Virus record (IMG/VR): IMGVR_UViG_3300022690_002678
Direction: 5' to 3' (one strand)
Length of the DNA: 31,486 bases
Source of the DNA: a virus
Under the pieces are notes generated by a model. That model was not told the origin of the DNA. It saw only the letters and a list, made by a program, of their open reading frames with translations, and did no database searches. Below, piece by piece: positions 846 through 20,101 of this stretch. Position 1 is the first letter of the stretch. Every line of letters starts with the position of its first letter. The position numbers and the translations under genes are program-made.

Positions 846-1967
846 TTACAGTGGCGTTTCTATTGGATCTGGTTCCCTAACTAGGATGGATATTGTATCT
901 GTACTTGTCACTCCTTTACGATCAGTTACTGCAAGTTGAAACTCTGCATTTCCTGTTTCTTCTGTTGCTGTAAATGTTGCAATAGCATTTTTAGAATTAG
1001 TTAAGGTACCCTCTACTCCTGATAACTGAATCCAAGAATAAGTTATTGTATCGCCATCAGGATCTGAACTTTTAGAACCGTTTAGATTAATTGATTCATT
1101 AACAAATACTTCATCATCTTCACCTGCATCGGCCACTGGTGAATGATTGCTAGAATCGCTTCCAATTACCATATTAATCACAAACATTGTAGTAGTTTTT
1201 GTAATAGTTTGATCAAGATAAGATAAAATCACGTCAACATCATATTCGCCTGGTGGAGAAATATTTGCTGGAAAGTACCATTCTCCATCCCAATGACCAT
1301 TATTTGCAGTAACACCAGATAGAGTTGCAACTGGATTATCATCAAGTGATATCAAAACTTTGACATCTACACCGTCAATTCTTCCATGAAAATCACTAGA
1401 TGATTTTGGATCAGAATTAATATTGCAATCAAATGATTGAATATTTATATCAAAATTTTGCATCCAATATGTTCTAAAGTCGTGCGATGAGGTCATGCAC
1501 AAGTCTGCAACGTATGGTGTTTTCTCTTTGGTTATCTCTGTTTCAATTATTTTTTCTTTGGAAAATGGAATGGCAGATGTTGTTGGAAATTTAATCAGTC
1601 CTTTGTCTGTTGAAAAATATACATTGATCTTATAATTTCCAAGCTCTGCATTCTTGTGACCATAAATTAAAATCCCATCAACTGCACTTGAAATTCTAAA
1701 ATGATTTCCAGTACTTGTAACTCTAATTTCGGGTTCTCTTAGAGGAACCTCATCGCCATAAAATTCCAAAGTTATATCATCTAAATGATTAGTTATCCAA
1801 TCTCGTGCTATTCCTTGTCTTACTGTATCTGCACCAAACTCAATATACACTGAGATTACTGCACTTTCACCTACCAGAGTAACTTCTTGTAGTGTATTGT
1901 TGTTTACTGCATATGCTGGATTTAGCAGCAAAGGAATCAAAAGTAATGAAAACAAAAGTTTCTTCAA
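846..1967 (-). CDS. Secreted/surface protein with C-terminal PKD/REJ-like Ig domain
   Basis: Signal peptide MKKLLFSLLLIPLLLNPAYA; C-terminal PVADAGED...LNGSKSSDPDGDTITYSWIQLSG...FQLAVTD signature; TTG start ~25 nt downstream of a minus-strand TTTTATAAATA (1991-2001). Confidence 0.85.
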   Translation of the reverse strand: MKKLLFSLLLIPLLLNPAYAVNNNTLQEVTLVGESAVISVYIEFGADTVRQGIARDWITNHLDDITLEFYGDEVPLREPEIRVTSTGNHFRISSAVDGILIYGHKNAELGNYKINVYFSTDKGLIKFPTTSAIPFSKEKIIETEITKEKTPYVADLCMTSSHDFRTYWMQNFDINIQSFDCNINSDPKSSSDFHGRIDGVDVKVLISLDDNPVATLSGVTANNGHWDGEWYFPANISPPGEYDVDVILSYLDQTITKTTTMFVINMVIGSDSSNHSPVADAGEDDEVFVNESINLNGSKSSDPDGDTITYSWIQLSGVEGTLTNSKNAIATFTATEETGNAEFQLAVTDRKGVTSTDTISILVREPDPIETPL

Positions 1968-2649: not shown

Positions 2650-2694
2650 CATATCTTGAAATTATTTCTCGGTAACAAATGGAGACAAACAAAC

Positions 2695-2961
2695 GTGGTA
2701 GTATTTGCAGCTAACATTACAGAATTTACACTTGCTCTAGTCGCTGATCTTTTAGCAACTGATCGCTGTGTAAAATTTAGCCAGCTAAACAAGCTGAATC
2801 TATCAGACAATACGATCTTGATTAGATTAGCACTAATCAATCTAGTGAGGCATCTGCCAGATAATGACGAGGTTCAAAAATACAAGGCAGCATTGCAACG
2901 TCCCCATGAATTTGATGACTTTTTGAAAGAAGAGTTAGGGGGCATCAACAGTGCAGTCTGA
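2695..2961 (+). CDS. First gene of rightward operon; possible ribbon-helix-helix-like regulator
   Basis: ORF track start (TTG 2656) lies upstream of the predicted +1; in-frame GTG 2695 has GGAG at 2681-84. Beta-strand-like VVFAANI followed by two helices (..NTILIRLALINLVR). Fold call is weak. Confidence 0.6.
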   Translation: MVVFAANITEFTLALVADLLATDRCVKFSQLNKLNLSDNTILIRLALINLVRHLPDNDEVQKYKAALQRPHEFDDFLKEELGGINSAV

Positions 2962-3157
2962 AATGTATGTATGTTGTGGCGAGCAGCCAACATCTCTTTT
3001 TGTTTATGAAAATAATGAAGTGTATGGAATATGTGACAAACACTTTGATTCCAAAGTTCATCGCTGTTTTGTAAGATATGTAATTGAGATAAAAAGCAGG
3101 AAGAAATTTCTTGCCAGTGAAATTTTCGAGGAGGTAAAAATTGAACCGATGCAATGA
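2951..3157 (+). CDS. Small Cys/His (Zn-binding?) protein
   Basis: 68 aa, CCG...ICDKHF...HRC; overlaps the upstream gene. Confidence 0.65.
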   Translation: MQSEMYVCCGEQPTSLFVYENNEVYGICDKHFDSKVHRCFVRYVIEIKSRKKFLASEIFEEVKIEPMQ

Positions 3158-3236
3158 GTGCGATGCGATAATTCCTCCTACCTATCGGGCTACTAACTGC
3201 CCAGTATGCGGCGAGCACCTGGAGGATGAGAAATAA
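3141..3236 (+). CDS. 31-aa zinc-ribbon microprotein (MNRCNECDAIIPPTYRATNCPVCGEHLEDEK)
   Basis: TTG start preceded by GAGGAGGT; CxxC and CPxCG; TAATG coupling to the next gene. Below the ORF-track size cutoff. Confidence 0.8.
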   Translation: MNRCNECDAIIPPTYRATNCPVCGEHLEDEK

Positions 3237-3454
3237 TGATGGACTCTGAAAAGGCTGAGACTGAGGAAGTTCTCACTAATTCTCTAAAGAAAGGTTTCAT
3301 GGAGCCACTCAAAGAAATGGTTGAGCGACTAAAGACAGAATCAGAACTACGTGAAAAAACACAAGAAGCACGCTACTCACTTACACAAAAAAAGTTAGAC
3401 ATTATTGAGGAAAAAGTCGACAAGGCAATCAAGCTACTGGAGAATAACACATAA
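3236..3454 (+). CDS. Coiled-coil hypothetical protein
   Basis: 72 aa, GGAGG RBS, TAATG coupling at both ends. Confidence 0.75.
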   Translation: MMDSEKAETEEVLTNSLKKGFMEPLKEMVERLKTESELREKTQEARYSLTQKKLDIIEEKVDKAIKLLENNT

Positions 3455-3597
3455 TGTCAAGAGGTGCATTAAGGGAGCTTCTTAGTGTAACTCCTGAAAA
3501 ATTTAATGTTATGGTAAAAAATATGCCAAAATCTGAAAAGCCTCAACTGCTTAAATTTCTAACAAAACGTTATTCCTTGGTGTTGGGTTTAAGATGA
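3454..3597 (+). CDS. 47-aa hypothetical protein (MSRGALRELL...)
   Basis: Manually translated; TAATG coupling upstream and ATGA downstream. Confidence 0.7.
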   Translation: MSRGALRELLSVTPEKFNVMVKNMPKSEKPQLLKFLTKRYSLVLGLR

Positions 3598-3878
3598 GCC
3601 AGTCTCTCATCACTGATGTTCAGTCAAGAACTGAATGGATATTAATTCACATTCCAGACTCTAGAAACTATACTGAAAACGAGTTTCTGTTTTGCTACTG
3701 GAGAAACTGGGAAGGCTTTGCATCAGAGGCATATGATCCAAGAATACTGACATCGCATGAAACAATCTCTAGATGTAAAAGAAAACTTGTTGAAAAAAAT
3801 GTGCAGTACAAGTCTAATGATACTGTAAGGCGAGCCAAGCAGCTCAAAGAAGAAGCATTTCGGGAGTGGTCAAAATAG
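3594..3878 (+). CDS. Hypothetical protein
   Basis: 94 aa coupled ORF in operon. Confidence 0.75.
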   Translation: MSQSLITDVQSRTEWILIHIPDSRNYTENEFLFCYWRNWEGFASEAYDPRILTSHETISRCKRKLVEKNVQYKSNDTVRRAKQLKEEAFREWSK

Positions 3879-4267
3879 TAATAAAAAAAGAAGGTGCAAC
3901 TCAGACTTGTAGTAACTGCAATACTGACTTGGTTTGCAGACTAAAAGACTATGGAGGAAACTTTGCGCCAACGTTGCAGTGGCAGAACTATGACGGGACT
4001 GCACATTTTAAAACTACGGATGGCAAAAACTATGCTTGCAATGTTCCAGATGAAGAGGTAACTGCGCAGACAAGAATTCCAAGTGAAGCTCCCCCTAGTG
4101 CAACTACTCCAGGCGATTCTCCAACTGGAATTAGTAATTCAAACTTGCTTTCACTTTCAGCAATTTCAGAAAAAATTGATCATATCATGTTAAAAGTCGA
4201 TTCACTTGATGAGATGATTCAGGCAATATTCCGATATACAGTTGATGAGCAGTTGAAAAAAAAATGA
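3866..4267 (+). CDS. Hypothetical protein with N-terminal Cys/His cluster and C-terminal coiled coil
   Basis: CSNC...C...H...C, Pro/Ser linker, heptad-like C-terminus; ATGA-coupled to the next gene. Confidence 0.75.
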   Translation: MVKIVIKKEGATQTCSNCNTDLVCRLKDYGGNFAPTLQWQNYDGTAHFKTTDGKNYACNVPDEEVTAQTRIPSEAPPSATTPGDSPTGISNSNLLSLSAISEKIDHIMLKVDSLDEMIQAIFRYTVDEQLKKK

Positions 4268-5451
4268 AACTCTCAATTAACGAAGAGTATTCCACTCTAG
4301 TTCCAGCACTGACTGAGGATGAATACATTTCCCTAAAAGACTCTATCAAAGAAAGTGGGTTATGGATTACAATACTGTGCAATCCTGATGGAATAATCCT
4401 GGATGGACATCACAGGTTTAGGGCATGCAATGAACTGGATATACAACCAAGGTTTGCAATACGTGAATTTGAAAATAAGTTATTTGAGAAAAAGTTTGTA
4501 ATTGAATGCAACCTAAAGAGACGACAGCTCAATGACTATCAGAGAGCAGAGCTAGGAATTCCTCTTCTAAAAATTGAGCAAGAACTTGCAGCACAACGCC
4601 AGGCTGCTGGTACCTTAAGGTCAAATGAACTTAAGGGTCAGTCCCGTGACTTTGTTGCAAAAAAGATTGGACTCTCTGGTACAACATTTGAGCGAGCTAA
4701 AAAAATAATAGAGACTGCTCCAGAGGAGATAAAAAAGAAGCTACGATCCCAAGACCCACAAACATCAATCTCAAAAGAATACAAGAACATCATCAAGGCA
4801 GAAAAAAAAGAAAAGCGACAAGAACAGATAAAAGAATTTCAGGTACATCTCCCAGAAAAAGTAACACTACACAATGCAGAGTTTCAAAAAGTCTTCATCG
4901 AGGGAAGTTCTGTTTCCCTAATTATCACTGACCCTCCTTACCATGAAAAGGATCTCCAACTGTATGATAACCTGGCCGTCCATGCATCACGAGTTCTTCG
5001 AGAAGGAGGGTCACTGTTATGTTATGCAGGACACTATGCCATTGGCACTATCATATCTATGGTTGAAGCACATGGACTAAAGTTTCAGTGGCCTATGGTA
5101 ATTCTTCATGGTGGCCCTAGTCCTGCAATCTTTGGCAGAAAAGTTTTGGTAGGATATAATCCAATGCTGTGGTTTGTCAAGGGAAAGTATGATGGAGAAA
5201 TGGTACGAGATGTAATCCAATCAGAGTTTCAGGGAAAAGAGCTGCATGACTGGGCAAAGAGTACCGTAGAGTCTGATTATTACATAAAATACATGACCAT
5301 CAAAAACGAGATTGTATATGATCCATTTATGGGTCAGGGAACTTTTGGAATATCTGCTGTAAAACTAAACAGGCAGTTTATTGGATGTGAGGTAAATCCT
5401 GAACACTTTGCAAATGCTGAGAGGTTGATTTCAGAGGCAGCTAAAACATGA
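4264..5451 (+). CDS. ParB/Srx-like domain fused to beta-class N6/N4 DNA methyltransferase
   Basis: N-terminal ILDGHHRFRAC...NLKRRQL and HTH VAKKIGLSGTTFERAKKI; catalytic IITDPPY preceding SAM motif VYDPFMGQGT...RQFIGCE. Confidence 0.92.
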   Translation: MKLSINEEYSTLVPALTEDEYISLKDSIKESGLWITILCNPDGIILDGHHRFRACNELDIQPRFAIREFENKLFEKKFVIECNLKRRQLNDYQRAELGIPLLKIEQELAAQRQAAGTLRSNELKGQSRDFVAKKIGLSGTTFERAKKIIETAPEEIKKKLRSQDPQTSISKEYKNIIKAEKKEKRQEQIKEFQVHLPEKVTLHNAEFQKVFIEGSSVSLIITDPPYHEKDLQLYDNLAVHASRVLREGGSLLCYAGHYAIGTIISMVEAHGLKFQWPMVILHGGPSPAIFGRKVLVGYNPMLWFVKGKYDGEMVRDVIQSEFQGKELHDWAKSTVESDYYIKYMTIKNEIVYDPFMGQGTFGISAVKLNRQFIGCEVNPEHFANAERLISEAAKT

Positions 5452-5669
5452 TGCTGACATTGTTAATACTTGCAATAATTCCTGCATTTATTGCAATTCC
5501 TATCTTGATTTATCATTTTCTAATTTTTCCAAATCTTGATGGAGTAATTCAAGATCTTTCTTGGTATAATTATGATGAGCAATCTCAGCATTTTCTTTAT
5601 TGGGTTGGATTTTACTCTAGTGGAATTTTTGGTGCAATTCTAGGATCTTCAGCGAGGACAAGTAAATAA
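5448..5669 (+). CDS. Small membrane protein (2 TM)
   Basis: Two hydrophobic stretches; coupled on both sides. Confidence 0.7.
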   Translation: MMLTLLILAIIPAFIAIPILIYHFLIFPNLDGVIQDLSWYNYDEQSQHFLYWVGFYSSGIFGAILGSSARTSK

Positions 5670-6004
5670 TGACAAATAACAACGAACAAATTTTGGAGAT
5701 AAAAGTGAATCTAGCTTTACTCCCACGTTTCAAATCAAGATGTTATGTATGTCACACCAAAAAATCAAGAAAAGGTTTTACGTTTCATCATTTGTGGTAT
5801 GTGCTAAATGATATAGTTCGCAAAAATTATCCAAAAAATTCCAGTGGTACACTGCAATACTATAAGGAACTGGAACCAGAAATCAGAAAAAATCCAAAAA
5901 GATTCTTGTATGTATGTAATCCGCACCACCAAGCAATAACACGCTTGCGTATGTGGGGAAAGAACCTGAACCGATTGATCAAGGCAGTGAGGATGACAAA
6001 CTAA
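5669..6004 (+). CDS. HNH-like (His-Me finger) protein
   Basis: CYVC...FTFHHLWY...YVCNPHH pattern. Confidence 0.6.
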   Translation: MTNNNEQILEIKVNLALLPRFKSRCYVCHTKKSRKGFTFHHLWYVLNDIVRKNYPKNSSGTLQYYKELEPEIRKNPKRFLYVCNPHHQAITRLRMWGKNLNRLIKAVRMTN

Positions 6005-6094
6005 TGCTTACCCATGGGATACTCTCTGAGATGTCATGGCTTGTAATAATACGAGAAGTTTACCGTCAAAGAGAATTCTTCAAGGAGAAAGAAT

Positions 6095-6502
6095 TTGCCT
6101 AAGGCTGGATTCAAAAGTATTACAGTAAATGAGATAGTTTACGACAAGTTTTACCAGATATTCTTTGATCAGAAAGAAAAACTTGCAATGAAAGGCGTCA
6201 ATAGTTTTTCGGGATATGTAACTCACTGTCTTGAGGAAATGATGCGAAAGGATGAGACATTCTCAAAGTTTACACCAAAGATTGAAAAAATTTCAGTTGA
6301 TGATACAAGAGTAATCCTCAATGACATTGTAAAAACCAGAATAGTTGAAGTCAAGTTTGTTGAAAATAGACTTTGCTGCATGTTGTGTGATCAAGAGGAA
6401 TGCAAGCATGTCGGCTTTTGCGAGTCAATGCCTGAAGTAATTGAGATTTTGGGAATGAGGATGCAACCAGGATGGAAAAAGAAGAGAGAGAGAGGAGTGT
6501 AG
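6095..6502 (+). CDS. Homolog of a conserved Nitrosopumilus-type protein: RHH-like N-terminus plus C-terminal CxxC-x4-CxH Zn site
   Basis: MPKAGFKSITV...KGVNSFSGYV...KIEKISVDD.RVIL.D...CMLCDQEECKHVGF, recognised from memory as a thaumarchaeal family. Confidence 0.75.
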   Translation: MPKAGFKSITVNEIVYDKFYQIFFDQKEKLAMKGVNSFSGYVTHCLEEMMRKDETFSKFTPKIEKISVDDTRVILNDIVKTRIVEVKFVENRLCCMLCDQEECKHVGFCESMPEVIEILGMRMQPGWKKKRERGV

Positions 6503-6851
6503 AGAGAGTATGGCATCAATACCTGAATTCAGACGAGCAAATGCAATTATTTCTACAGTCAAGAAAGCAGACGGCCAAAACGCCCATATCTTTGATGTCT
6601 TGGATATTACACATACCTCCCATTGGTGGTGGAAAGATCACAAGAAATGGTTCTTTCATAGAAATCCCTTCATGTCACTACAAAAAATAGAAGGAGAAGA
6701 TTACCTAGTCTATTCACCAGACGTAGCTGAAAAACCAAAGGAGACACTAGATAATGTATAATGAAAATATTTTTTATGATATTTTTTATAATAATATAAT
6801 AATTAAAAATATTTTTTATTATAAAAAAAATCTCTCTACACTCCACTCTCT
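6487..6851. repeat. 21-bp inverted repeat (1 mismatch) flanking an 83-aa ORF and an AT-rich tract
   Basis: GGAGTGTAGAGAGA 6494-6507 is the exact reverse complement of 6831-6844; extends to 6487-6507/6831-6851 with one mismatch. Confidence 0.8.
6510..6761 (+). CDS. Hypothetical protein (Trp/His-rich)
   Basis: 83 aa ORF directly after the previous stop. Confidence 0.65.
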   Translation: MASIPEFRRANAIISTVKKADGQNAHIFDVLDITHTSHWWWKDHKKWFFHRNPFMSLQKIEGEDYLVYSPDVAEKPKETLDNV

Positions 6852-6868
6852 TTTTTGGAGGTCATGTT

Positions 6869-7201
6869 ATGAATCCTAAACGATTAGAGATGATTGAGAT
6901 TTTAGGGGGTTTTAAATGCAAACATTGTAGTGTTGTTGACGCTAGAATATTAGAAATTGATCATATTTTTGGAAATGGGAAAGAGATGCCACTTTCTGAT
7001 CATAATATTTTAGATATTTATTTAGATAATCCTTATCTTTGCAAAACGGAATTACAAATCCTATGTTGTAACTGTCATAGGATTAAATCATTAGAACATG
7101 GAGATTTGGGGAGAAGGAAAGGGGAACCTAAACCTATAACTGTTAAAAAAAAAGACATTCCTAAAAATATCTTAGAGAATATGGATTGGTATACATCATG
7201 A
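6869..7201 (+). CDS. HNH endonuclease-like protein
   Basis: LGGFKCKHC...LEIDHI.G.G...LQILCCNCHRIK; GGAGGT RBS. Confidence 0.8.
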   Translation: MNPKRLEMIEILGGFKCKHCSVVDARILEIDHIFGNGKEMPLSDHNILDIYLDNPYLCKTELQILCCNCHRIKSLEHGDLGRRKGEPKPITVKKKDIPKNILENMDWYTS

Positions 7202-7449
7202 TTGAATATCTTGATGATGAATCTCAAGAATACATTGAAGATGATGATCAGTATATTGATGAGAATAATGATCCATGTGGTGTAGTAAAGATAACAGAAG
7301 AGAACTCTGTGAGAGTTGAGGACAAAGAAGAAGTCATTGAGTTTGATGAAATATTTGAGACAGTAAAGGCAGAGATTGTAGATTTTGTAGAGCATGATCA
7401 TATGATGGAAGAAAAAGTAGTGGATGCTTTGAGAAGAGGGAAACTGTAA
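7186..7449 (+). CDS. Highly acidic small protein
   Basis: Very D/E-rich; likely start at ATG 7198 (ATGA coupling). Confidence 0.7.
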   Translation: MVYIMIEYLDDESQEYIEDDDQYIDENNDPCGVVKITEENSVRVEDKEEVIEFDEIFETVKAEIVDFVEHDHMMEEKVVDALRRGKL

Positions 7450-7586
7450 TGAGTGAATCAAAGTGGAATGAGCGATTTGATATACGAAAACACATATCAT
7501 TAAAATTAAAAAATAATGAACATATTCCCATTGCAGAATGGCAGATGTTACACTTGGCAAATCTCAAAGACGAGGTGCAAAACTGA
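7449..7586 (+). CDS. 45-aa hypothetical protein (MSESKWNERF...)
   Basis: Manually translated; TAATG-coupled; carries the GAGGTG RBS of the next gene. Confidence 0.6.
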   Translation: MSESKWNERFDIRKHISLKLKNNEHIPIAEWQMLHLANLKDEVQN

Positions 7587-7587
7587 A

Positions 7588-7803
7588 ATGAGTTCTAATT
7601 CGACAGAATTGAATAAAGGTTTAATTGGATTAATTATGCTCATTGGTTCTGTTGTATGGGCGTTCTATAGTGTATTAACATGGACTATAGATAGTGTTGA
7701 ATTATCACCTGCATTATTTGTTTCATTTACTGTTGGATTCATTTCATTATTTTTACTGATGGCAAATACCAATCATTCAGGGTGTTCAGGAGGAAAGAAA
7801 TGA
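7588..7803 (+). CDS. Small 2-TM membrane protein
   Basis: Start reassigned from 7516 to ATG 7588 (GAGGTG RBS); two hydrophobic helices. Confidence 0.7.
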   Translation: MSSNSTELNKGLIGLIMLIGSVVWAFYSVLTWTIDSVELSPALFVSFTVGFISLFLLMANTNHSGCSGGKK

Positions 7804-8096
7804 CTCGACTCGATTATGCCATACACTTTTTCTTCGGAAAAAAATCAGATTCCATGATTAGTATTGAAGAAAGATTCCCACAACTAGACAAGTTTGACAG
7901 GTTAGGAGCTTTCTTTCATGCTTTTGGAAATCTTAGTATCACTTTTAAAAAAGGATGGATAATCATACTTCCTGCTAGACATGAATTTAAATGGAATAAT
8001 AGTAAAGGAATAATTCAAATCTCAATTTCAATATTTGCACTTTATTGGAACAAAACTAGAAAAAAGACAGTTCAAACAAAAGGTGATTCTACATGA
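7800..8096 (+). CDS. Hypothetical protein
   Basis: ATGA-coupled start at 7800 with GGAGG RBS. Confidence 0.6.
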   Translation: MTRLDYAIHFFFGKKSDSMISIEERFPQLDKFDRLGAFFHAFGNLSITFKKGWIIILPARHEFKWNNSKGIIQISISIFALYWNKTRKKTVQTKGDST

Positions 8097-8180
8097 TTCT
8101 ATATTTTAAGAATGGTTGGGTTGACTCTAATAATAAAACATGGTTTTGGAAGAATGACATTTTATTCTCATTAATTAGGA

Positions 8181-8372
8181 GTGAAAATTAAAATGAAAGT
8201 TGAATTACTGTTACAAAATCACATACTGTCCTATGATCTTAAACGACTAGTAGAGCATTTAGCAAAACTAAAGGGATTTGAATTTATCATTGATCCCAAC
8301 TATGATTGTAAAATCATAGTCAAGAAGCGACCCTACAGAACTAAAAGGAGAATCCAAGATGAGCCTCTTTAG
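8181..8372 (+). CDS. Small basic hypothetical protein
   Basis: ORF track; fits the operon. Confidence 0.55.
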   Translation: MKIKMKVELLLQNHILSYDLKRLVEHLAKLKGFEFIIDPNYDCKIIVKKRPYRTKRRIQDEPL

Positions 8373-8655
8373 ATATTCTGATTATTACAACGAATCAAAA
8401 CAGAACAAAACAGTATCACACAGAAGAGGTACTCATGGGGGCATTGCAATCTCAAAAAAGATAACACTTCCAACACAGCACAGATCACCGAATCATCAAT
8501 GTGTACTGTGTCCAAGAACTGATGCCCGACAATATTCTATATCATTTAAAGAAACAAGATGGCTTTGTCCTGTTTGTATTGTAAAAAACAAAAACAAGAA
8601 CACAAAAGAAAAACCAAATTTCATCAAAGCCAGTCAGTTGGGAGTAAAAGCATGA
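8359..8655 (+). CDS. Basic Zn-finger protein
   Basis: CVLC...WLCPVC; AGGAG RBS. Confidence 0.7.
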   Translation: MSLFRYSDYYNESKQNKTVSHRRGTHGGIAISKKITLPTQHRSPNHQCVLCPRTDARQYSISFKETRWLCPVCIVKNKNKNTKEKPNFIKASQLGVKA

Positions 8656-8828
8656 CAAGTCTTGAATGTGTTTTAGGAATACTAGAAAGAGTACGAGGAC
8701 TAGAAGTGCAAAAAAAAGCACTTCAATTGCAACAATCTGAGATAGACCGCGAAATAAACGAGCAAAAAAACCAACTCAATGATTTCTTGGATGCGCATTT
8801 TATGGACGTTAAGGAGATGCCAAAATGA
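8652..8828 (+). CDS. Coiled-coil small protein (MTSLECVLG...)
   Basis: ATGA-coupled internal start of track ORF 8559-8828; GGAG RBS. Confidence 0.65.
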   Translation: MTSLECVLGILERVRGLEVQKKALQLQQSEIDREINEQKNQLNDFLDAHFMDVKEMPK

Positions 8829-8937
8829 GTCAGACAATTAATCTGAAGATCAACAAGCTTGGAAAACATTTGCTAGAATGTGAGAATTGTATGAGCAAGT
8901 TTACTATGATTATAACTCATTTGGTAGGAGAAAAAAA

Positions 8938-9078
8938 ATGAAGGAATCACAACTAAAGGCTCGCGAAACCAGACTCAACAACCATCTACAAAATAATGAA
9001 CTTCTTACCCCCTATGAAAGACAAGCAACCAAAGAAAAATTGGCTACATACATTGACAAAAGGAAAAGAATAGAATGA
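8938..9078 (+). CDS. Small basic protein (MKESQLKARE...)
   Basis: AGGAG RBS; coupled to a 38-aa ORF at 8825-8941 and to the Cdc48-N gene. Confidence 0.6.
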   Translation: MKESQLKARETRLNNHLQNNELLTPYERQATKEKLATYIDKRKRIE

Positions 9079-9608
9079 CTGATTTCATAAAACTCAGATG
9101 CAAGGAATCCTACACCAGAGATGTTGGACGTGGACATCTCAGACTTGATTATTACTCAATGGACAAGCTGAAAATATCTACAGGTGATATTATTGAGATA
9201 GAGGGCAAGAAAAAGTCAGTAGCCAAAGCATTACCATTGTATCCTACTGATGAGGGAAAAGGAATGGCAAGAACTGATGGTATAGTTCGAGAAAATATGG
9301 AATTAGTTGTTGGTGAGGAGATAAAAATTACCAAAGTCAAATCTCATGATGCAATCAAGATAGTTGTCAAATCAGAAAATGTAATTCCTCCAATTGATGA
9401 GCGATACCTTACTGATGCCTTTGAGGGAATGGCAATCTCTATTGATGATTATATCATGGTTACATACTTTGGAGGGCGACTGAAATTCCAAGTGGTTAGT
9501 ACAGTTCCACAAGGTGCAGTAGTAGTTACTCGCTTGACTAATTTTGTTATAGAGGGAAAAAAAGAAGATGATAAAGTCACATGTCCTACTTGTGGGAGTC
9601 TGGTGTGA
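9075..9608 (+). CDS. Stand-alone Cdc48/p97/VAT N-domain (double-psi barrel plus CDC48_2), no AAA module, C-terminal CPTCG
   Basis: ESYTRDVGRG..RLDY.SMD.L..STGDIIEIEG...VAKALPLYP.DEGKG..R.DG...IPPIDERYL.DA...YFGGRL.FQV, as in archaeal Cdc48 N-termini; stop follows immediately. Confidence 0.92.
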   Translation: MTDFIKLRCKESYTRDVGRGHLRLDYYSMDKLKISTGDIIEIEGKKKSVAKALPLYPTDEGKGMARTDGIVRENMELVVGEEIKITKVKSHDAIKIVVKSENVIPPIDERYLTDAFEGMAISIDDYIMVTYFGGRLKFQVVSTVPQGAVVVTRLTNFVIEGKKEDDKVTCPTCGSLV

Positions 9609-9802
9609 AGTTTTTCTCAAGACGTAAAGCAGCATCTCCTGAGAGGAGTAAAGTACCCGTCTACATCACACTACAAGGCAAAGATCAACTGATTCGATTA
9701 TGGGTTGACAAAAACATGCATCCCTATAAAGTAGAACTGCGAATGAAAAACTTTCAAGGGTATCTTGATGTTGATGAATTTCTAAAGAGATTAAAAATAT
9801 GA
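9605..9802 (+). CDS. Small basic hypothetical protein
   Basis: GTGA-coupled start at 9605. Confidence 0.6.
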   Translation: MKFFSRRKAASPERSKVPVYITLQGKDQLIRLWVDKNMHPYKVELRMKNFQGYLDVDEFLKRLKI

Positions 9803-10209
9803 CGAAATGGCTTGTAGCTGACACTAAAAGCGTAAAGGATGGTAAAATAGAACACACCATTACAGAAACTCCTTTGCTGCATTGCTGCTGCAACGAGGAT
9901 CATTTTGCAGATGTTAATATCGATATAAGACCAGAAGTAAATCCTGACTTTGTATGTGATGTAACTGAAGAATTGCCATTCAAAGATGACCAGTTCAAAG
10001 CTGCATTTGCTGATTTTCCTTGGGTTGGTTCATGGCGATTTAAATCTGCCAGAGCCATCAAAGAAATGCTCAGAGTTGCACCAATTGTATACACAATATC
10101 TCCTTGGCTGTATGGTGCTAGAACTTGCTATCCTGAATTTATCAAAGTGTCTTGGAGACCTGGAATTAACCATCCAATTCTGTTTGTAAAATATGTCAGG
10201 AGAACATGA
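9799..10209 (+). CDS. Minimal SAM-dependent methyltransferase-like protein (DPPY-like motif DFPW)
   Basis: VNIDIRPEVNPDFVCDV..LPFKDDQFKAAFADFPW...EMLRVA; motif I degenerate (LHCCCN). Confidence 0.7.
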   Translation: MTKWLVADTKSVKDGKIEHTITETPLLHCCCNEDHFADVNIDIRPEVNPDFVCDVTEELPFKDDQFKAAFADFPWVGSWRFKSARAIKEMLRVAPIVYTISPWLYGARTCYPEFIKVSWRPGINHPILFVKYVRRT

Positions 10210-10361
10210 TGGCATCAACTTTTGCACAGTTTCCAAATAATACTACAACTGCAAATACAACTGACTGGAACTTTACAGATACGTGTACGTGGCAATTTAA
10301 TATCACCATAATCTATGAAGACAATGATGAGTATGAAAACTGTGGTGGATACATTCCATGA
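10206..10361 (+). CDS. 51-aa Asn/Thr-rich microprotein
   Basis: Manually translated MMASTFAQFPNNTTTANTTDWNFT...; ATGA-coupled, AGGAG RBS. Confidence 0.45.
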   Translation: MMASTFAQFPNNTTTANTTDWNFTDTCTWQFNITIIYEDNDEYENCGGYIP

Positions 10362-10398
10362 ATTGTGGATTTTGTGTGTGAGATATATTGCAATAAAA

Positions 10399-10860
10399 AT
10401 GGGACACCGAGATATTACTGCACTGCACAAAATCTATGAGGAGGCAAAATTAATCTGCAAGGAAAACGAGCTGCCTTATCACTTTACAGTAGATGATGGC
10501 GACTATGAGACTGCAATAGAGTTCTTCTTTTTAGGAGATGCAAAGACTCCGCAATGGGAAACATTTCATCCTCCATATTCTCAGAACTGGAATGAAAACT
10601 CTAACATATTGTGCCCTGATATACTGGACTATCATCATAAAATTATAATAGAATTTGAGGAAGAAGTAGGAGAGCCACGCACAGGAGCCAGACTTGCCAA
10701 AAAAGGCCATCATAGGGAGGGTGATATGGATAACAGTCATGATACAGAGCGAGAATACTATTACAAGTGGGGACAATTTCACACGTTGCGAATATGGGAT
10801 TCTGATACAATGTGGAAAGGCAAACTAAAGAAATTTTTGATAGATGTTTATGGAAATTGA
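10399..10860 (+). CDS. PD-(D/E)XK nuclease, Vsr/DUF559-like
   Basis: CPDILD...KIIIEFEE...HD.ERE...GQFHTLRIW; ATG 10399 preferred over the track start 10315. Confidence 0.7.
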   Translation: MGHRDITALHKIYEEAKLICKENELPYHFTVDDGDYETAIEFFFLGDAKTPQWETFHPPYSQNWNENSNILCPDILDYHHKIIIEFEEEVGEPRTGARLAKKGHHREGDMDNSHDTEREYYYKWGQFHTLRIWDSDTMWKGKLKKFLIDVYGN

Positions 10861-10898
10861 ACTAATCTTTAAATATTAACCCACTACTATGATACATT

Positions 10899-11042
10899 AT
10901 GAGTAAACGTGTTACAATTATGATCGACGAAGATCTTGACAAGAAACTCAGACTCAGACAAGCAAAAATGATTTCACAAGAACAGTCATCATATAGTTTT
11001 TCAAGAGTGTTAAATGAAGCAGTCCGTAAAGGTTTGAAATAA
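10899..11042 (+). CDS. 47-aa ribbon-helix-helix protein (MSKRVTIMIDEDLDKKLRLRQAKMI...SFSRVLNEAVRKGLK)
   Basis: Manually translated; classic RHH pattern of a Nitrosopumilus-type family; TTTAAATA ~25 nt upstream (leaderless). Confidence 0.9.
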   Translation: MSKRVTIMIDEDLDKKLRLRQAKMISQEQSSYSFSRVLNEAVRKGLK

Positions 11043-11118
11043 ATAAAATTGGGGTTCAATAATCCCTTCATCACAATTGACAAGTTCTTTTTATTTAATT
11101 ATTATTAAAGTTTCATTT

Positions 11119-11517
11119 GTGATACTTGATGCATTTAATGAACATGTAAGAATTTATCCAAATGACAGTGCTCAACTTTCTGCGTTGGGTACTGTACTGC
11201 ATAACTATCGAAGCCGAAGCATGTGGTCGCTTTTAGCTAACAACCCAAAGCGAACATACCATCTAAAAGAGATGGCAAGAATTATTGAAAAACAAGAAAA
11301 CCCACGTTTGTCAATTTACGAGTACCATATCAAGATTATGATGAAATCAAAGATCCTCATACCAACTACCAAAATACACAATAAACATGATGTAGTATTT
11401 TACAGAGCAGCTCCGTTTGTTTTACTGAGTCCTCCACAATATTATAAAAAGGCACTCACTAGTGAAACTCTAAACCGTGCATTCAGCAAAGTCTTTGAGC
11501 TTCAATGGGTACAGTAA
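11119..11517 (+). CDS. ArsR-like winged-helix regulator
   Basis: LSALG.VL.N.RSR.MW.LL...YHLKEMARII...LSIYEYHIKIM; GTG 11119 lies downstream of TTTATTTAA. Confidence 0.7.
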   Translation: MILDAFNEHVRIYPNDSAQLSALGTVLHNYRSRSMWSLLANNPKRTYHLKEMARIIEKQENPRLSIYEYHIKIMMKSKILIPTTKIHNKHDVVFYRAAPFVLLSPPQYYKKALTSETLNRAFSKVFELQWVQ

Positions 11518-11561
11518 TTACTGTACTATCTTTTTTATAAAAAAAAATACAAATTTTTCTA

Positions 11562-12152
11562 TTGGCTGAAAAGTGCAAGTATTGCTCAGAGATATTTCCA
11601 AACATAATAGATCTGCTTGAACATTTTCATGATGAGCATCTCTCAAAACTAGACTCTCTTCCATGTATGTTCTGCGAGAAAAGCTTTGCAAACTTTGAGG
11701 ATATTTTACATCATGTACAACTAGAGCATATGGGAATAGATTCTCCTCTATTAGAAAAGGCAACCATAGCCCGACAAATAAAAAAAGAGCTTGGAGATTA
11801 TCTTGATGTAGGCAAACCAGGAATTGGCTATGAATGCCCTGAGTGTTTTGAGCAGTTCTCAAATATTGATAGGCTTGTTATTCATGCTAAAAAAGAACAT
11901 AAGCGAGAACTTAATCCAGAGTTTCTTGAGCAAATAAAAAAAGTTTCAGAGACTAGTAGTAATGGCAAAGTGCAACCAATATGCCAGCGATGCAACAAAA
12001 CCTTTCTTGGTGTAGTATTTACCAAAATAGACAACAAAGTTCTAAATGTCTGCCTTAACTGCTATGAAGACTATTTTGGAGCAAACGCACTAACTAGGTT
12101 AACTGTGGGAACAAATGATGACATGATAGCCAAGATGAGAAAACCGTTATGA
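11562..12152 (+). CDS. Multi-C2H2 zinc-finger protein (3 C2H2 plus C-terminal C4)
   Basis: CKYC..F..L..HF..EH; CMFC..F...HV..EH; CPEC..F...HA..EH; CQRC...CLNC. Confidence 0.9.
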   Translation: MAEKCKYCSEIFPNIIDLLEHFHDEHLSKLDSLPCMFCEKSFANFEDILHHVQLEHMGIDSPLLEKATIARQIKKELGDYLDVGKPGIGYECPECFEQFSNIDRLVIHAKKEHKRELNPEFLEQIKKVSETSSNGKVQPICQRCNKTFLGVVFTKIDNKVLNVCLNCYEDYFGANALTRLTVGTNDDMIAKMRKPL

Positions 12153-12331
12153 ATTTTTTTTCTGATATTGATCAGTGGAGTAAGGAATCAAAAAAAGGAC
12201 TGGTATGTGGAATATTTGGATGCAACGAACCAGTAAAAATAAGATGTAATATTTGCAAAGGCGGTTATTGTAAGGAACATCAAAAATGGCATTTTCATAC
12301 ATCCAATAATATGGGAATTTTTCTAAAATAA
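12149..12331 (+). CDS. AN1-like zinc-finger small protein
   Basis: CGIFGC...CNIC...YCKEH...H. Confidence 0.75.
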   Translation: MNFFSDIDQWSKESKKGLVCGIFGCNEPVKIRCNICKGGYCKEHQKWHFHTSNNMGIFLK

Positions 12332-12333
12332 TT

Positions 12334-12771
12334 ATGAACAAAAATAAAAATGCCGATACAATCTTTGAAGAATATGCTGATCTCTACAAATTAACCGCAA
12401 AGACCGCAGATGAGCATATAGCATTTTACAAAAAGAAGGAATCTCTTTCTATGGAATATTTGTTTGATGTCTGGCACAAACTATCATTGCAGGCATTATA
12501 CTTTGATGATAGATTGTGGATTGAGAACTGGCACAACTGGGCTAAAAATATGCAAGCATTTGAAGGGCACAAATTTGAGGCAAAGTTTCTAATCCAGCAC
12601 TATCTTACAGATGTGCTTGATGAATTAGTAAGCAGACTAATTACTGAATATGTGAAACCTGCTCTTCTTAAAGTCAAAAAATCCGCCAACAAGGACGAAA
12701 TATCTGAGCTAGTAAAAGATGAAGTCACACGCCAAGTAAAAGAGGCATTAAAGAAGAAAAAGAAAACTTGA
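12334..12771 (+). CDS. Hypothetical helical protein with basic tail
   Basis: 145 aa ORF, last of the rightward arm. Confidence 0.75.
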   Translation: MNKNKNADTIFEEYADLYKLTAKTADEHIAFYKKKESLSMEYLFDVWHKLSLQALYFDDRLWIENWHNWAKNMQAFEGHKFEAKFLIQHYLTDVLDELVSRLITEYVKPALLKVKKSANKDEISELVKDEVTRQVKEALKKKKKT

Positions 12772-13204: not shown

Positions 13205-13399
13205 TTAATTGGCAGTCATCTTTTCACGCAACGCTTCAGGTGATTTTCTCTGAGGCTTTATCTCACATTTCATACAGCGCCACTTCATCTCACGCAACAT
13301 CTGCAATCCCAATATCATGTTTGGAAAAGTCATTGTCTCTTTACAATTCAAGCACAGTGCACGAAACAGTCTGTCATCAAACTGTTTTAGTTCTGACAA
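13205..13399 (-). CDS. Small C4 zinc-binding protein (MSELKQFDDR...CLNC...CMKC)
   Basis: TTG at 13399 with GAGGT RBS, overlapping the transposase 3' end. Confidence 0.65.
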   Translation of the reverse strand: MSELKQFDDRLFRALCLNCKETMTFPNMILGLQMLREMKWRCMKCEIKPQRKSPEALREKMTAN

Positions 13400-14397
13400 C
13401 TTACCTCTTTTTCGATTGTAGCGTTTTGAATCAGTGTATCCCACTTGTTATCCTCAATGTAAATCCCTGCACGCTCAGAAGGAATTGCATTAATTCCCAT
13501 ATGATCTCGGATAAAATTGTAATACAGTATAAAGCCGTCAACGGATACTGAGTTCATATTCTTTATTGCCCGAAACGACTTTGATCTCTGTCGAAATGTT
13601 CCGTTCCATCTCTCCATTAGATTGTTCTTCCACTTTGTACCGTTGCTGTAGTTTGCCCTGACATGTTCAGTTACCTGTGAATCAAAGACTTCTCCAAATG
13701 CCTTTTTGTAGCTGGGCATACTATCAGTTGTGAATATCTTTGGATTTTTTTGTGCCTTTGTGATTGCCATTTGAAATAACTTGTTTGCCTTGTGGGTCTT
13801 TTTGGTGTCTGCAATGTAATATGCCAAAACGAATCTAGTCTCATCATCCATTAGTACGAAAAGATATTTTGGCTTTCCCTGAATTTTCAGATAGATTTCA
13901 TCGCATCTCCACTTGTCTGAAACCTTTGGCGTGAACTGATCTAAAAACACCTTCATTAGTTTCACATATTTTTTTATCCAGTAAAAGACACCACCAGATG
14001 AAATTTCTATTCCCTGCATCTGCAAAAACTTTGCAATGTTCCTAATTGACTCACCAGTAAAGTAAAGCTGCATTGTCTGGGCAATTGCTTCTGTCTTTAC
14101 ACGCAGTCCTTTGAATCCAATAACACTAAAGTCAAACTGAACGCCACAGCTTTTACAAACGTATCTCTGAACTATTCTTACTTTGTTGTGCCTTGTGCCG
14201 TTTTTGATAAAATAAGTTGAATTGCAAGTAGGACACGTAGCGTTATTTTTAGGTGCTGTGATGAATATCTTGTCTTTTGTCTTAATTACAGTCTCTGGTC
14301 TTATCTTCTTCTGAGTTATGATTTTCTTAAAGTGCTGTTGTTCCAGTTTTTCCAGATCTGGAATGTCCAGTTCTAGCTTGCTTAATCTCTGTGCCAT
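13387..14397 (-). CDS. IS6-family (DDE_Tnp_IS240-like) transposase/integrase with N-terminal Zn ribbon
   Basis: CPTC...KNG...QRYVCKSC; HTH (ESIRNIAKFL...VFYWIKKY); catalytic WRCDE, FTTDS, NNLMERWN; YYNFIR.H. Confidence 0.9.
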   Translation of the reverse strand: MAQRLSKLELDIPDLEKLEQQHFKKIITQKKIRPETVIKTKDKIFITAPKNNATCPTCNSTYFIKNGTRHNKVRIVQRYVCKSCGVQFDFSVIGFKGLRVKTEAIAQTMQLYFTGESIRNIAKFLQMQGIEISSGGVFYWIKKYVKLMKVFLDQFTPKVSDKWRCDEIYLKIQGKPKYLFVLMDDETRFVLAYYIADTKKTHKANKLFQMAITKAQKNPKIFTTDSMPSYKKAFGEVFDSQVTEHVRANYSNGTKWKNNLMERWNGTFRQRSKSFRAIKNMNSVSVDGFILYYNFIRDHMGINAIPSERAGIYIEDNKWDTLIQNATIEKEVSCQN

Positions 14398-15125: not shown

Positions 15126-17453
15126 TTAACTTAGTGTTGTTGACTTCCAACCGTTGTTAGTACATACATACAGATAGTTGTTCGTGTCATCCACTTTCAT
15201 TCTACCAATTTCGTCTATTACATCACAATCTGCTGTTGGCGGCGTGCCTGAACTTGTAGCAAGTTCGATATAACCAGTTACTTCTAATTGTGAGTTTGGA
15301 GTTATAGTTCCAATGCCAACGTTGCCATCAGTGTAATGAATTATTCCATTACCTCCATCCATCCAAAGATTGACAAACAGTGTCTCTCCAAAGTCACCAG
15401 ACAGTACAGGTGATGTAGTAGTAGATGCAGTTGATGTTGTATCAGCTGAGAGTATTTGTGTTGTACCAGTTGGAGTAACAGTAGTAATGCCAACTACTGG
15501 AGGTCCTGCATTATTTGTATTTTTGATAGTTATCATAAATTTGTCAGGTGCAACCCATTCTCCTTCATCTATTTTACCAAGTGGTTCTGAGAATGTAAAC
15601 AAGTCGTTAACATCTTTTTCTGTCAGTTTTCCTGGTCCACTTGGTGTATTTGTGTCTGAATCAAATAATATGACTATAATATCACCAGAAGAATATATAA
15701 CATCCAAGTCATCAGGATCGTCAGCTATTAGTGATGTGATTACTGGTGCTGAAGAGATAAATGATCCAAAGTTACCAGACAGTACTGGTGATGTGGCAGT
15801 AGATGCAGTAGATGTTGTATCAGCTGAGAGTATTTGTGTTGTTGTGCTAGTTGGAGTAACAGTAGTGCCAGTTATAATTGGCGGTGTTGCACCAGTCACA
15901 TCTGTAACTGTAATTACAAATGTATCAGCACTAATCCATTGTCCAGTATATGTGTCTCCAAGTGATTCAGTAAATGTGAACAAGTCATCAACTGCTGTTT
16001 TTGTTTGGAATCCTGTTCCGCCTGGTTCATTGGTATCAGAGTCAAAAGTTATGGTTATAATATCATCAACAGAGTATACCTCATCGAGATCATCAGGATC
16101 GTCAGCTATTAGTGATGTGATTACTGGTACTGGTGAAATAATAGACGTAGCACCTTGCATAGTCACCCATGTGTATGTACTACCATTATAAACACACACA
16201 TACATTTTAGCATTTGAATCATCTACTTTCATACGGCCTATCTCATCTATACTATCACAATCAGTTAATGGTGGTTCACCTGAATTTGTATCAAGTTGAA
16301 TATAACCTGATACTTGTAATGCTGAGATTGGAGAGCTAGTTCCTATTCCTATATTACCTGTAGTATAAGAAAGATCACTTCCTGATTGTGTCCAAAAATT
16401 TGTGTCTACTGTATGAGCTCCTGTAACAAATCCAAATGTTTCAATATCTGTTTGGTCTAGTGTAGTGTCTACTGTATGAGCTCCTGTAACAAATCCAAAT
16501 GTTTCAATATCTGTTTGGTCTAGTGTAGTGTCTACTGTATGAGCTCCTGTAACAAATCCAAATGTTTCAATATCTGTTTGGTCTAACTGAGTATCCATAC
16601 TGGCAGTTGTCTGTGTTGTACCATCAGAGAACTTGAATCCTCCAGATGTGGATTCTATGATTCCATTAACTGAGAGTGATTGATTAGGATTTGTGGTTCC
16701 AATACCGACATTACCACCATCATAGTAAATTACTCCAGCGCCTCCATCAATCCAATAATTTGAAAGTGGTGGTGATGCAGTAACATCATTTACTGTCAAT
16801 GAAAATATTTGCCAAGTATTATCATCTGTCCCATCGGATGCTGTAACATTAAAATTGTATACTCCAGAATCAGAGAATCCAGGATTTGCTGAAAACGTTG
16901 CAGTATCATTACCATTATCAACAAATGATGTAAAGTTTAACAAAGGACTTATTCCAAATGATATCGGATCTGAATCTGCATCAGTTGCACTGATTAATAA
17001 ATCCAACGATGTGTCTTCATCTACTGATTGGTTTGGTATGAAATCAAGTACAGGTGAATTATTAGTAACCTCGGATAAACCATCAAGGAATAGGATATGG
17101 ACTGCGCCTCTGTTAGTACCACCTTCATCATCTTTATTTGCACCAACTACAATGTCATTAATTCCATCATTATCCAAGTCACCAATGTTGCTGACAGATC
17201 TACCAAAGTGATCACCAGTACTTAGTCCTGGTCCATTTGTTGTACTAGAATTAATTTCTACTGTTAATATTACATCACCAGGTGCTGCATGCACTGGAAT
17301 AATTCCTCCAGGAATTAACATCATACTCATAATACTAAACATAAGAAGTGTTTTGAGAATCTTTGTCTTTTTTACGTTATCATTATTCTCGTTATTAATT
17401 AACAATGACAATTTTGAAAATAGCATATATATAAAATGATCAAACGTTATCAA
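15126..17453 (-). CDS. Large secreted adhesin/fibre-like protein: FG-GAP repeat, cadherin/Ig-like domain, three GNVGIGT modules, tandem repeats
   Basis: Signal peptide ending VHA-A (true start probably downstream of 17453); DHFGRSVSNIGDLDNDGINDIVVGA..DD.GG.NRGAV; N.SPVLD.I..Q.VDE...ATDAD.D; GNVGIGT x3; duplicated PVITSLIADDPDDLD domain. Confidence 0.85.
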   Translation of the reverse strand: MITFDHFIYMLFSKLSLLINNENNDNVKKTKILKTLLMFSIMSMMLIPGGIIPVHAAPGDVILTVEINSSTTNGPGLSTGDHFGRSVSNIGDLDNDGINDIVVGANKDDEGGTNRGAVHILFLDGLSEVTNNSPVLDFIPNQSVDEDTSLDLLISATDADSDPISFGISPLLNFTSFVDNGNDTATFSANPGFSDSGVYNFNVTASDGTDDNTWQIFSLTVNDVTASPPLSNYWIDGGAGVIYYDGGNVGIGTTNPNQSLSVNGIIESTSGGFKFSDGTTQTTASMDTQLDQTDIETFGFVTGAHTVDTTLDQTDIETFGFVTGAHTVDTTLDQTDIETFGFVTGAHTVDTNFWTQSGSDLSYTTGNIGIGTSSPISALQVSGYIQLDTNSGEPPLTDCDSIDEIGRMKVDDSNAKMYVCVYNGSTYTWVTMQGATSIISPVPVITSLIADDPDDLDEVYSVDDIITITFDSDTNEPGGTGFQTKTAVDDLFTFTESLGDTYTGQWISADTFVITVTDVTGATPPIITGTTVTPTSTTTQILSADTTSTASTATSPVLSGNFGSFISSAPVITSLIADDPDDLDVIYSSGDIIVILFDSDTNTPSGPGKLTEKDVNDLFTFSEPLGKIDEGEWVAPDKFMITIKNTNNAGPPVVGITTVTPTGTTQILSADTTSTASTTTSPVLSGDFGETLFVNLWMDGGNGIIHYTDGNVGIGTITPNSQLEVTGYIELATSSGTPPTADCDVIDEIGRMKVDDTNNYLYVCTNNGWKSTTLS
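15388..16128. repeat. Intragenic duplication of a ~126-127 aa domain
   Basis: Near-identical blocks at 15709/16090 (offset 381) and 15388/15766 (offset 378). Confidence 0.9.
16402..16585. repeat. 63-bp perfect coding tandem repeat, ~2.9 copies
   Basis: Units start at 16402, 16465 and 16528; encode DTTLDQTDIETFGFVTGAHTV. Confidence 0.95.
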
Positions 17454-19789: not shown

Positions 19790-20101
19790 TTACTCCAATC
19801 GCTCCTTGCAATTCTTACAAAGTGGGTGTTTTGCTTTTAATCTATCATATGGATCACAGTTAGTATCATAGACATTTTCACAAGGACAGATTATTTGATA
19901 CTTGTAATCTCCTTTAGTTTTTTCAATGACTCTTTGTTTTTTGATCTCATCATACATATTTTGTAATTTTTTCTCTAACTTTTCTGATTGCTTTTGAGTG
20001 TCTTTGTATTCTTTTTCAAGTTTAGATATCAGAGTTTTTCTAGATGTAATCATTGATTGATTTATCTGTGTAAATCTTTGATCTTTATTCCTATCAATCA
20101 T
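19790..20101 (-). CDS. Coiled-coil plus Cys-cluster protein
   Basis: Heptads followed by CPC...C...LCKNC. Confidence 0.7.
   Translation of the reverse strand: MIDRNKDQRFTQINQSMITSRKTLISKLEKEYKDTQKQSEKLEKKLQNMYDEIKKQRVIEKTKGDYKYQIICPCENVYDTNCDPYDRLKAKHPLCKNCKERLE

Follow-up and report, generated by a model that had tools for sequence, protein, structure and literature searches.

The gene at 9075..9608 (+) of the window, as the whole analysed stretch of 31,486 nucleotides is called here, codes for a captured, intact, stand-alone N-domain of the unfoldase Cdc48 that is under purifying selection. It belongs to a real and conserved family of motor-less Cdc48 N-domains, apparently undescribed, which is carried by viruses that likely infect ammonia-oxidising archaea. 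Our best reading of its role, and a tentative one, is that of a competitive decoy which soaks up the normal partner of the host N-domain.

The N-domain gene, its family and its carriers

The ORF call, Pfam, an AlphaFold model and Foldseek agree on the nature of the 177-aa product. The double-psi beta-barrel lobe (CDC48_N, residues 6-89, 9090..9341 (+), E 2e-21), with its conserved E-x-YTRDVGRG and LPLYP-x-DE loops, and the second beta lobe (CDC48_2, residues 108-163, 9396..9563 (+), E 8e-12) both score over the curated Pfam cut-offs, and the model (mean pLDDT 88.7, 64-70 in the tail) aligns structurally with VAT-N and p97-N (Foldseek E ~1e-12, TM 0.74-0.81), in agreement with the complete Cdc48/p97 N-domain fold proposed in the first-pass annotation. 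The top BFVD matches of the protein are viral Ufd1 proteins, and no PHROG or PADLOC family matches it. A YFGGR hairpin (residues 130-135, 9462..9479 (+)) is near-invariant in the motor-less family and in the host paralogue referred to below as A. The second lobe is followed by a tail of only ~14 residues, in which a short charged linker leads to KVTCPTCGSLV and the stop codon. The CPTCG motif (residues 170-174, 9582..9596 (+)), four codons before the stop, is a predicted half zinc site; it had been taken for a new tail, whereas the alignment shows it to be invariant in 40 protein clusters. The contigs of one DNA sequencing run, a possible source of the window and not independent of it, contain the gene without differences.

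The first protein search gave 257 matches among 297 candidates, and 37 of the 120 listed were CPTCG-ended proteins of 174-186 aa with pairwise identities of 43-91% in the alignment. Profile searches added three, bringing the family to at least 40 CPTCG clusters (171-186 aa), and a further eight proteins carry CPTCG plus a helical extension. One relative, P0042, bears an automatic UniRef name for the domain. Examination of dN/dS among homologs, as had been proposed, gave 0.28 for the window gene against its counterpart in L004, the nearest locus with DNA, and 0.10-0.39 over ten pairs of five genes, several of them near saturation, which indicates purifying selection. The value of 0.28 is also the highest among the 11 genes shared with L004 (range 0.09-0.28), and one of the six CPTCG-type genes with DNA (L003:3560-4086) is frameshifted after approximately residue 58, through decay or an assembly error. 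Together, the high ratio and the frameshift indicate that some viruses can dispense with the gene or hold it under little constraint.

Three IMG/VR records (L001, L002, L003) carry family members, which places relatives of the gene on viruses, and one of these records has a terminase: L002 lies in G001, a linear genome of 41,471 bp (CheckV 100%) that encodes a terminase large subunit (E 3e-29). In L001 and L003 the gene lies near large genes that are related to each other; a weak portal match (E 5e-5) is seen only in that of L003. The metagenome locus L004 is syntenic with positions 2656-12771 of the window, and in the same scan (25 of 64 parts) 3 of the 80 metagenome loci kept were motor-less. 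The CPTCG form was absent from the best 80 genome loci (35 of 64 parts scanned). Unlike host Cdc48, the CPTCG family occurs on viral and unclassified metagenome contigs and was not found in the 301 Nitrososphaerales genomes searched, where the 150 listed of 841 matches all stop before the tail and the best score was 248.8 bits, compared with 252-321 bits for family members (a circular yardstick, since most of them built the profile). Scans of viral contigs with single proteins (that of the N-domain gene and those of two neighbours) gave no match, and neither did GenBank phages with the N-domain protein. A DNA scan of viral contigs for the tail motif returned one match, which was off-frame inside an unrelated 5659-aa gene and was rejected. 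The tailed viruses that carry the family likely infect ammonia-oxidising archaea, and the window's own element is presumably a virus of Nitrososphaerales, with no virion genes found in its 31.5 kb by Pfam or PHROG.

In the window, the gene is part of a co-directional block of small genes (2656..12771 (+)), the region syntenic with L004. Its ATG overlaps the stop of a small upstream ORF (8938..9078 (+); ATGA, 9075-9078), at whose place L004 has another gene, and its own stop overlaps the GTG of a 65-aa ORF (9605..9802 (+); GTGA, 9605-9608), which has no Pfam match and is conserved in L004, though not in L001, L002, L003 or L012. The coupling on both sides noted earlier therefore exists as four-base overlaps; since overlaps with different neighbours occur in four related loci too, it amounts to ordinary operon packing. 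A conserved partner gene was looked for beside the N-domain gene at the family loci and none was found; small non-structural genes surround it both in the window and in G001.

The window contains several other features. A tRNA at 2048-2119 has a GAA anticodon whose stem is closed by a C-C mismatch, together with G3:U70 pairing and A73, both features of alanine-type identity, and two degenerate repeats 148 bases apart (2150-2360) reuse pieces of its D and anticodon arms. The suggested link between the N-domain and mistranslation stress from this miscoding tRNA found no support, as no tRNA accompanies the N-domain gene in the complete genome G001 or in the 20.5 kb of the syntenic locus L004. An IS6-family DDE transposase (13387-14397 (-)) lies where the gene block ends, and one contig of the sequencing run joins 13184 to 2270 at a depth of 3.5. 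An 869-aa protein (21356-23965 (-)) with GHKL-like ATP-binding motifs, recognised by eye, has no Pfam, PHROG or PADLOC match; the gene for it and a DNA methylase fusion at 20094-21359 are coupled. Two further genes, at 15126-17453 (-), which includes three 63-base tandem copies, and at 846-1967 (-), encode proteins of exported or virion type that have FG-GAP/Ig and PKD domains.

Absence of the motor and origin from a host paralogue

Compared with archaeal Cdc48/VAT, the window protein has a CPTCG cap and is devoid of the linker, the tandem AAA domains D1 and D2 and the HbYX end. The first-pass annotation had reported no AAA remnant downstream, and a profile of linker, D1 and D2 built from 64 host Cdc48 proteins indeed gave no match in the six-frame translation of the window (best E 4.2, against 1053 bits for the positive control). 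The D1-D2 profile was likewise without a match in the window, L001, L003, L004, L012 and G001, and the complete 41.5-kb G001 gave no match to PF00004 or PF17862 either. The occurrence of a member in a complete tailed virus lacking a Cdc48 motor argues against a split gene. In none of the 40 family members is the penultimate residue Tyr or Phe, and 29 of them end in SLV, whereas 55 of 68 full-length copies of host paralogue A end in YYR, an HbYX-type terminus.

In a phylogeny against host Cdc48 paralogs, the other check that had been proposed, paralogue A and all motor-less proteins form one group that excludes two other paralogues (SH-aLRT 96, in a quick tree with long outgroup branches; all our trees are quick searches), which indicates derivation from this HbYX-bearing Nitrososphaerales protein. 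The window protein falls within a clade of 25 members with a support of 100 in such a tree. The AU test does not reject a single origin for the CPTCG proteins (p-AU 0.59, with L178 left out), which is no proof of it. Some proteins with other tails branch, again in a quick tree, among Nitrosopumilus-type host sequences, and this suggests that the N-domain may have been released from host Cdc48 repeatedly. Short N-domain frames in the complete host chromosome G002 (L179, L180, L181) turned out to be frameshifted full-length paralogues, probably through sequence errors, and were left out of the counts.

The window protein has the same lobes, fold and A-specific residues as VAT-N (PDB 1CZ4) and the Nitrososphaerales paralogue marked by an EAYTRDVGRG loop and a terminal YYR, and is ~52-56% identical to the host copies. 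Out of 98 host-invariant columns, 57 are kept in the motor-less family, 16 are partly kept and 25 are lost. Among the 33 columns that are common in other paralogues too, 24 are kept; of the 39 specific to paralogue A, that is, invariant in A and rare in 35 copies of other paralogues, 19 are kept in at least 85% of the family and 20 are not. The kept A-specific columns include Y13, Y26, K51, L53, L55, P105-I107, Y131 and F132. As the other paralogues fold without these residues, a preserved ligand surface seems to be indicated.

The side of the domain that faces the motor gives a less uniform picture. The D1-facing patch (positions 70-81) is relaxed in the family, and positions 76 and 78, invariant in hosts, are kept in only 17-20% of it, while the YFGGR hairpin is 90-100% kept. 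Mapped by register only (profile position 7 set to p97 residue 79, an approximate match), positions 76 and 78 correspond to p97 R93 and R95, and YFGGR to the R155 hairpin, all located at the N-D1 interface according to passages of PMC3318706. The signal of interface conservation thus appears mixed and approximate.

Motor-less N-domains in the hosts

The best 150 matches after 50% clustering held 142 new representatives, 100 of which have extra sequence and no AAA motifs; this clustering collapses ordinary Cdc48, so that motor-less forms are over-represented, and several look like frameshift artefacts. A Pfam scan of 111 of the 142 (the 31 short ones being left out) together with P0123 revealed four AAA domains, two TIR, one KAP NTPase, one caspase, one kinase, one HNH, one AN1 finger, nine TPR, four SHOCT and several tandem N-domains. 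The fusion proteins (P0281, P0381, P0269, P0298, P0346, P0364 and P0371) comprise TIR, KAP NTPase, caspase-TPR, kinase-TPR, HNH and AN1-finger forms, the TIR, KAP, caspase and kinase parts of which match PADLOC models. The KAP fusion is named to Nitrososphaera, and most effector fusions are single-member clusters. Moreover, 8 of 10 host genomes, picked for most matches, hold a motor-less N-domain or a barrel-only protein. Given such host copies and fusions, we regard the Cdc48 N-domain as a mobile module in the host lineage and the viral protein as its minimal form.

Some of these genes deserve separate mention. A host family (L197:1456-2283, L224:1453-2283, L198:1159-2127) joins the N-domain to an unannotated C-terminal domain of ~100 aa, while in L238:1480-2298, L240:952-1779 and L241:1486-2304 the barrel lobe only is fused to an unrelated C-terminal domain, next to a membrane gene that looks TerC-like by eye. 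Eight motor-less N-domains (P0035, P0040, P0047, P0066, P0067, P0112, P0116 and P0120) have a helical tail resembling GatB/YqeY, a resemblance based on one weak Pfam match (E 0.001).

Judged from the sequences, the effector fusions suggest that the N-domain may serve as a module of conflict. It is even conceivable, although rather doubtful, that hosts graft the N-domain onto TIR, KAP-NTPase, caspase, kinase or HNH effectors as an integrated decoy sensing viral attack on Cdc48, and that viruses answer with a free, zinc-linked N-domain sponge; if true, this would amount to an archaeal guard-type immunity with the proteasome motor at its centre.

Possible functions and their meaning

The use of truncated host domains as decoys is a known viral strategy. 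In the competitive-decoy reading, the free, intact N-domain of the host's proteasome-linked Cdc48 would bind the domain's normal partner, so that during infection this partner and its cargo would be kept from reaching the host Cdc48-20S machine. We infer that the protein is produced, that it binds the partner and that the binding is inhibitory. Without AAA domains it cannot unfold substrates or join the ring, and without an HbYX end it is not expected to open the 20S gate; mixed hexamers are an unlikely route to a dominant-negative effect, as the ring-forming AAA domains are absent. Because CPTCG offers only two cysteines and the other cysteines are not invariant in the family, we predict that the motif shares a zinc site with a second copy or with a partner, and copies linked by zinc would gain avidity against the hexameric competitor. 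The complex prediction for two copies with zinc scored 0.02, the mark being 0.42, and carries no weight either way. The C-P-x-C-G pattern is presumably that of the Rad50 zinc hook half-site, and Rad50_zn_hook (PF04423) gave weak scores in the relatives P0034 and P0099 (E 0.05-0.06, under the cut-off); the Rad50 arrangement of a half-site between coiled coils is nevertheless not seen, as the CxxC is terminal and the model has no flanking coiled coil.

As for the target, PAN is stated to be absent from Thaumarchaeota in a part of PMC3493965, and its OB domain was found in none of five genomes, so that Cdc48 is likely the main proteasomal ATPase of the host group. Targeted proteolysis in Haloferax requires a Cdc48, according to an excerpt of PMC4895103, and taken together the two points make Cdc48 a plausible viral target. 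Eukaryotic cofactors dock mainly on the N-domain of Cdc48, often competitively, as a portion of PMC4192671 describes, and the physiological function of the archaeal N-domain is called unclear in a section of PMC5423775. Matches to the ThiS family in two Nitrosopumilus-sized genomes lie only inside long frames and do not establish a free ubiquitin-like tag as ligand. The size of the family, the selection acting on it, its origin from paralogue A, the kept A-specific residues, the relaxed positions 76 and 78 and the motor-less G001 all count for the decoy. On the other side, the kept YFGGR hairpin fits docking to the ring as well, 20 of 39 A-specific columns are lost, the swapped tails of relatives fit an adaptor, and the gene combines the highest dN/dS of the shared genes with the frameshift in L003.

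Docking in trans on the D1 ring of host Cdc48, where the protein would displace or mimic the native N-domain and tune the ATPase and unfoldase rate, is an unlikely explanation, yet the first of the alternatives to be weighed. The near-complete retention of the hairpin speaks for it, as the R155 hairpin of p97 can be cross-linked to D1 and the cross-link locks the enzyme off (passages of PMC3318706), and removal of the N-domain raises VAT activity (the same section of PMC5423775). Nevertheless, the second D1-facing patch is relaxed, one untethered domain would face six tethered competitors, and tandem N-domains and effector fusions are more easily explained by a diffusible ligand.

It is less probable still that the protein is an adaptor similar to Ufd1, holding the Cdc48 machinery with one end and picking cargo with a swappable other end, whereby host unfolding would be redirected to selected host proteins or viral assemblies. 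Ufd1 UT3 indeed has the same Cdc48-N fold and no motor (also in the cited portion of PMC4192671), and the constant N-domain of the relatives is combined with tails as varied as CPTCG alone, CPTCG with helices (the eight proteins), zinc fingers, GatB-like helices and TPR. The window protein, however, is only 9-17% identical to Ufd1, lacks its long SHP-bearing tail and branches with the host Cdc48 paralogue; identity with Ufd1 was rejected (UFD1_N2 18.1 bits, cut-off 37). The shortness of its own tail, the lack of an HbYX-type end in all 40 members and the lack of a conserved adjoining partner gene also weigh against an adaptor.

Quite improbable is a role as holdase or folding aid to viral proteins, independent of ATP and perhaps switched by redox state or zinc through CPTCG. 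Isolated VAT-N reportedly displayed chaperone activity (Golbik, 1999), and two members (L001, L003) adjoin the portal-like gene, but a generic holdase would need no residues specific to one paralogue, there is no link to the odd tRNA, G001 and L004 having no tRNA, and the gene of the window and of G001 has non-structural neighbours. Even lower stands counter-defence or exclusion, in which the protein would mask a viral Cdc48-binding protein from host N-domain-effector sensors, or neutralise that of a competing virus. The fusions to TIR (two clusters), KAP NTPase, caspase, kinase, HNH and TPR are consistent with it, as is the setting of host copy L224, flanked by a recombinase-like ORF on one side and a weak TIR_2 ORF on the other; the effector fusions are, however, mostly single-member clusters without genomic context, some maybe assembly chimeras, and no viral protein that binds Cdc48 was identified. 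That the gene is a decaying fragment, or one half of a split Cdc48, is hardly credible and already largely refuted: the frameshifted L003 copy and the restriction of the motor search to 31.5 kb of the 109,872-bp contig are outweighed by the shared end point of 40 clusters under purifying selection (dN/dS well below 1), by the complete relative G001 without a Cdc48 motor, and by the longer matches, since among the 120 listed of 4153 identity never exceeds 56% and none carries CPTCG in the corresponding position, so that neither the lone, neutrally evolving gene nor the AAA partner elsewhere that the first-pass annotation had allowed for was encountered, and its view that the gene is not broken holds.

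Full-text searches found no description of viral or stand-alone archaeal Cdc48 N-domains, although supplements could list the gene, and Cdc48 is not mentioned in the main texts of PMC6563490 (thaumarchaeal mobile elements), PMC8651126 (archaeal tailed viruses) and PMC7159879. CDC48-family ATPases are listed as virus- or plasmid-associated under arCOG01308 in a table of PMC4158269, the row for which concerns ATPases and is silent on motor-less forms. A giant-virus-type stand-alone NSF/Cdc48 N-domain (an unnamed 164-aa protein, BFVD A0A0P0YMB7, TM 0.63-0.67) likewise retains nothing of a host AAA motor except its docking domain, but shares 15% identity with the window protein and comes from a different donor and a different host domain of life.

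A virus-borne free N-domain with an A-specific surface is a ready bait for the ligand of the archaeal N-domain, and marks the residues that matter. If the competitive-decoy reading is right, viruses of a globally important group of nitrifiers would interfere with host proteolysis, and the effector fusions hint at a layer of archaeal immunity that has so far gone undescribed.
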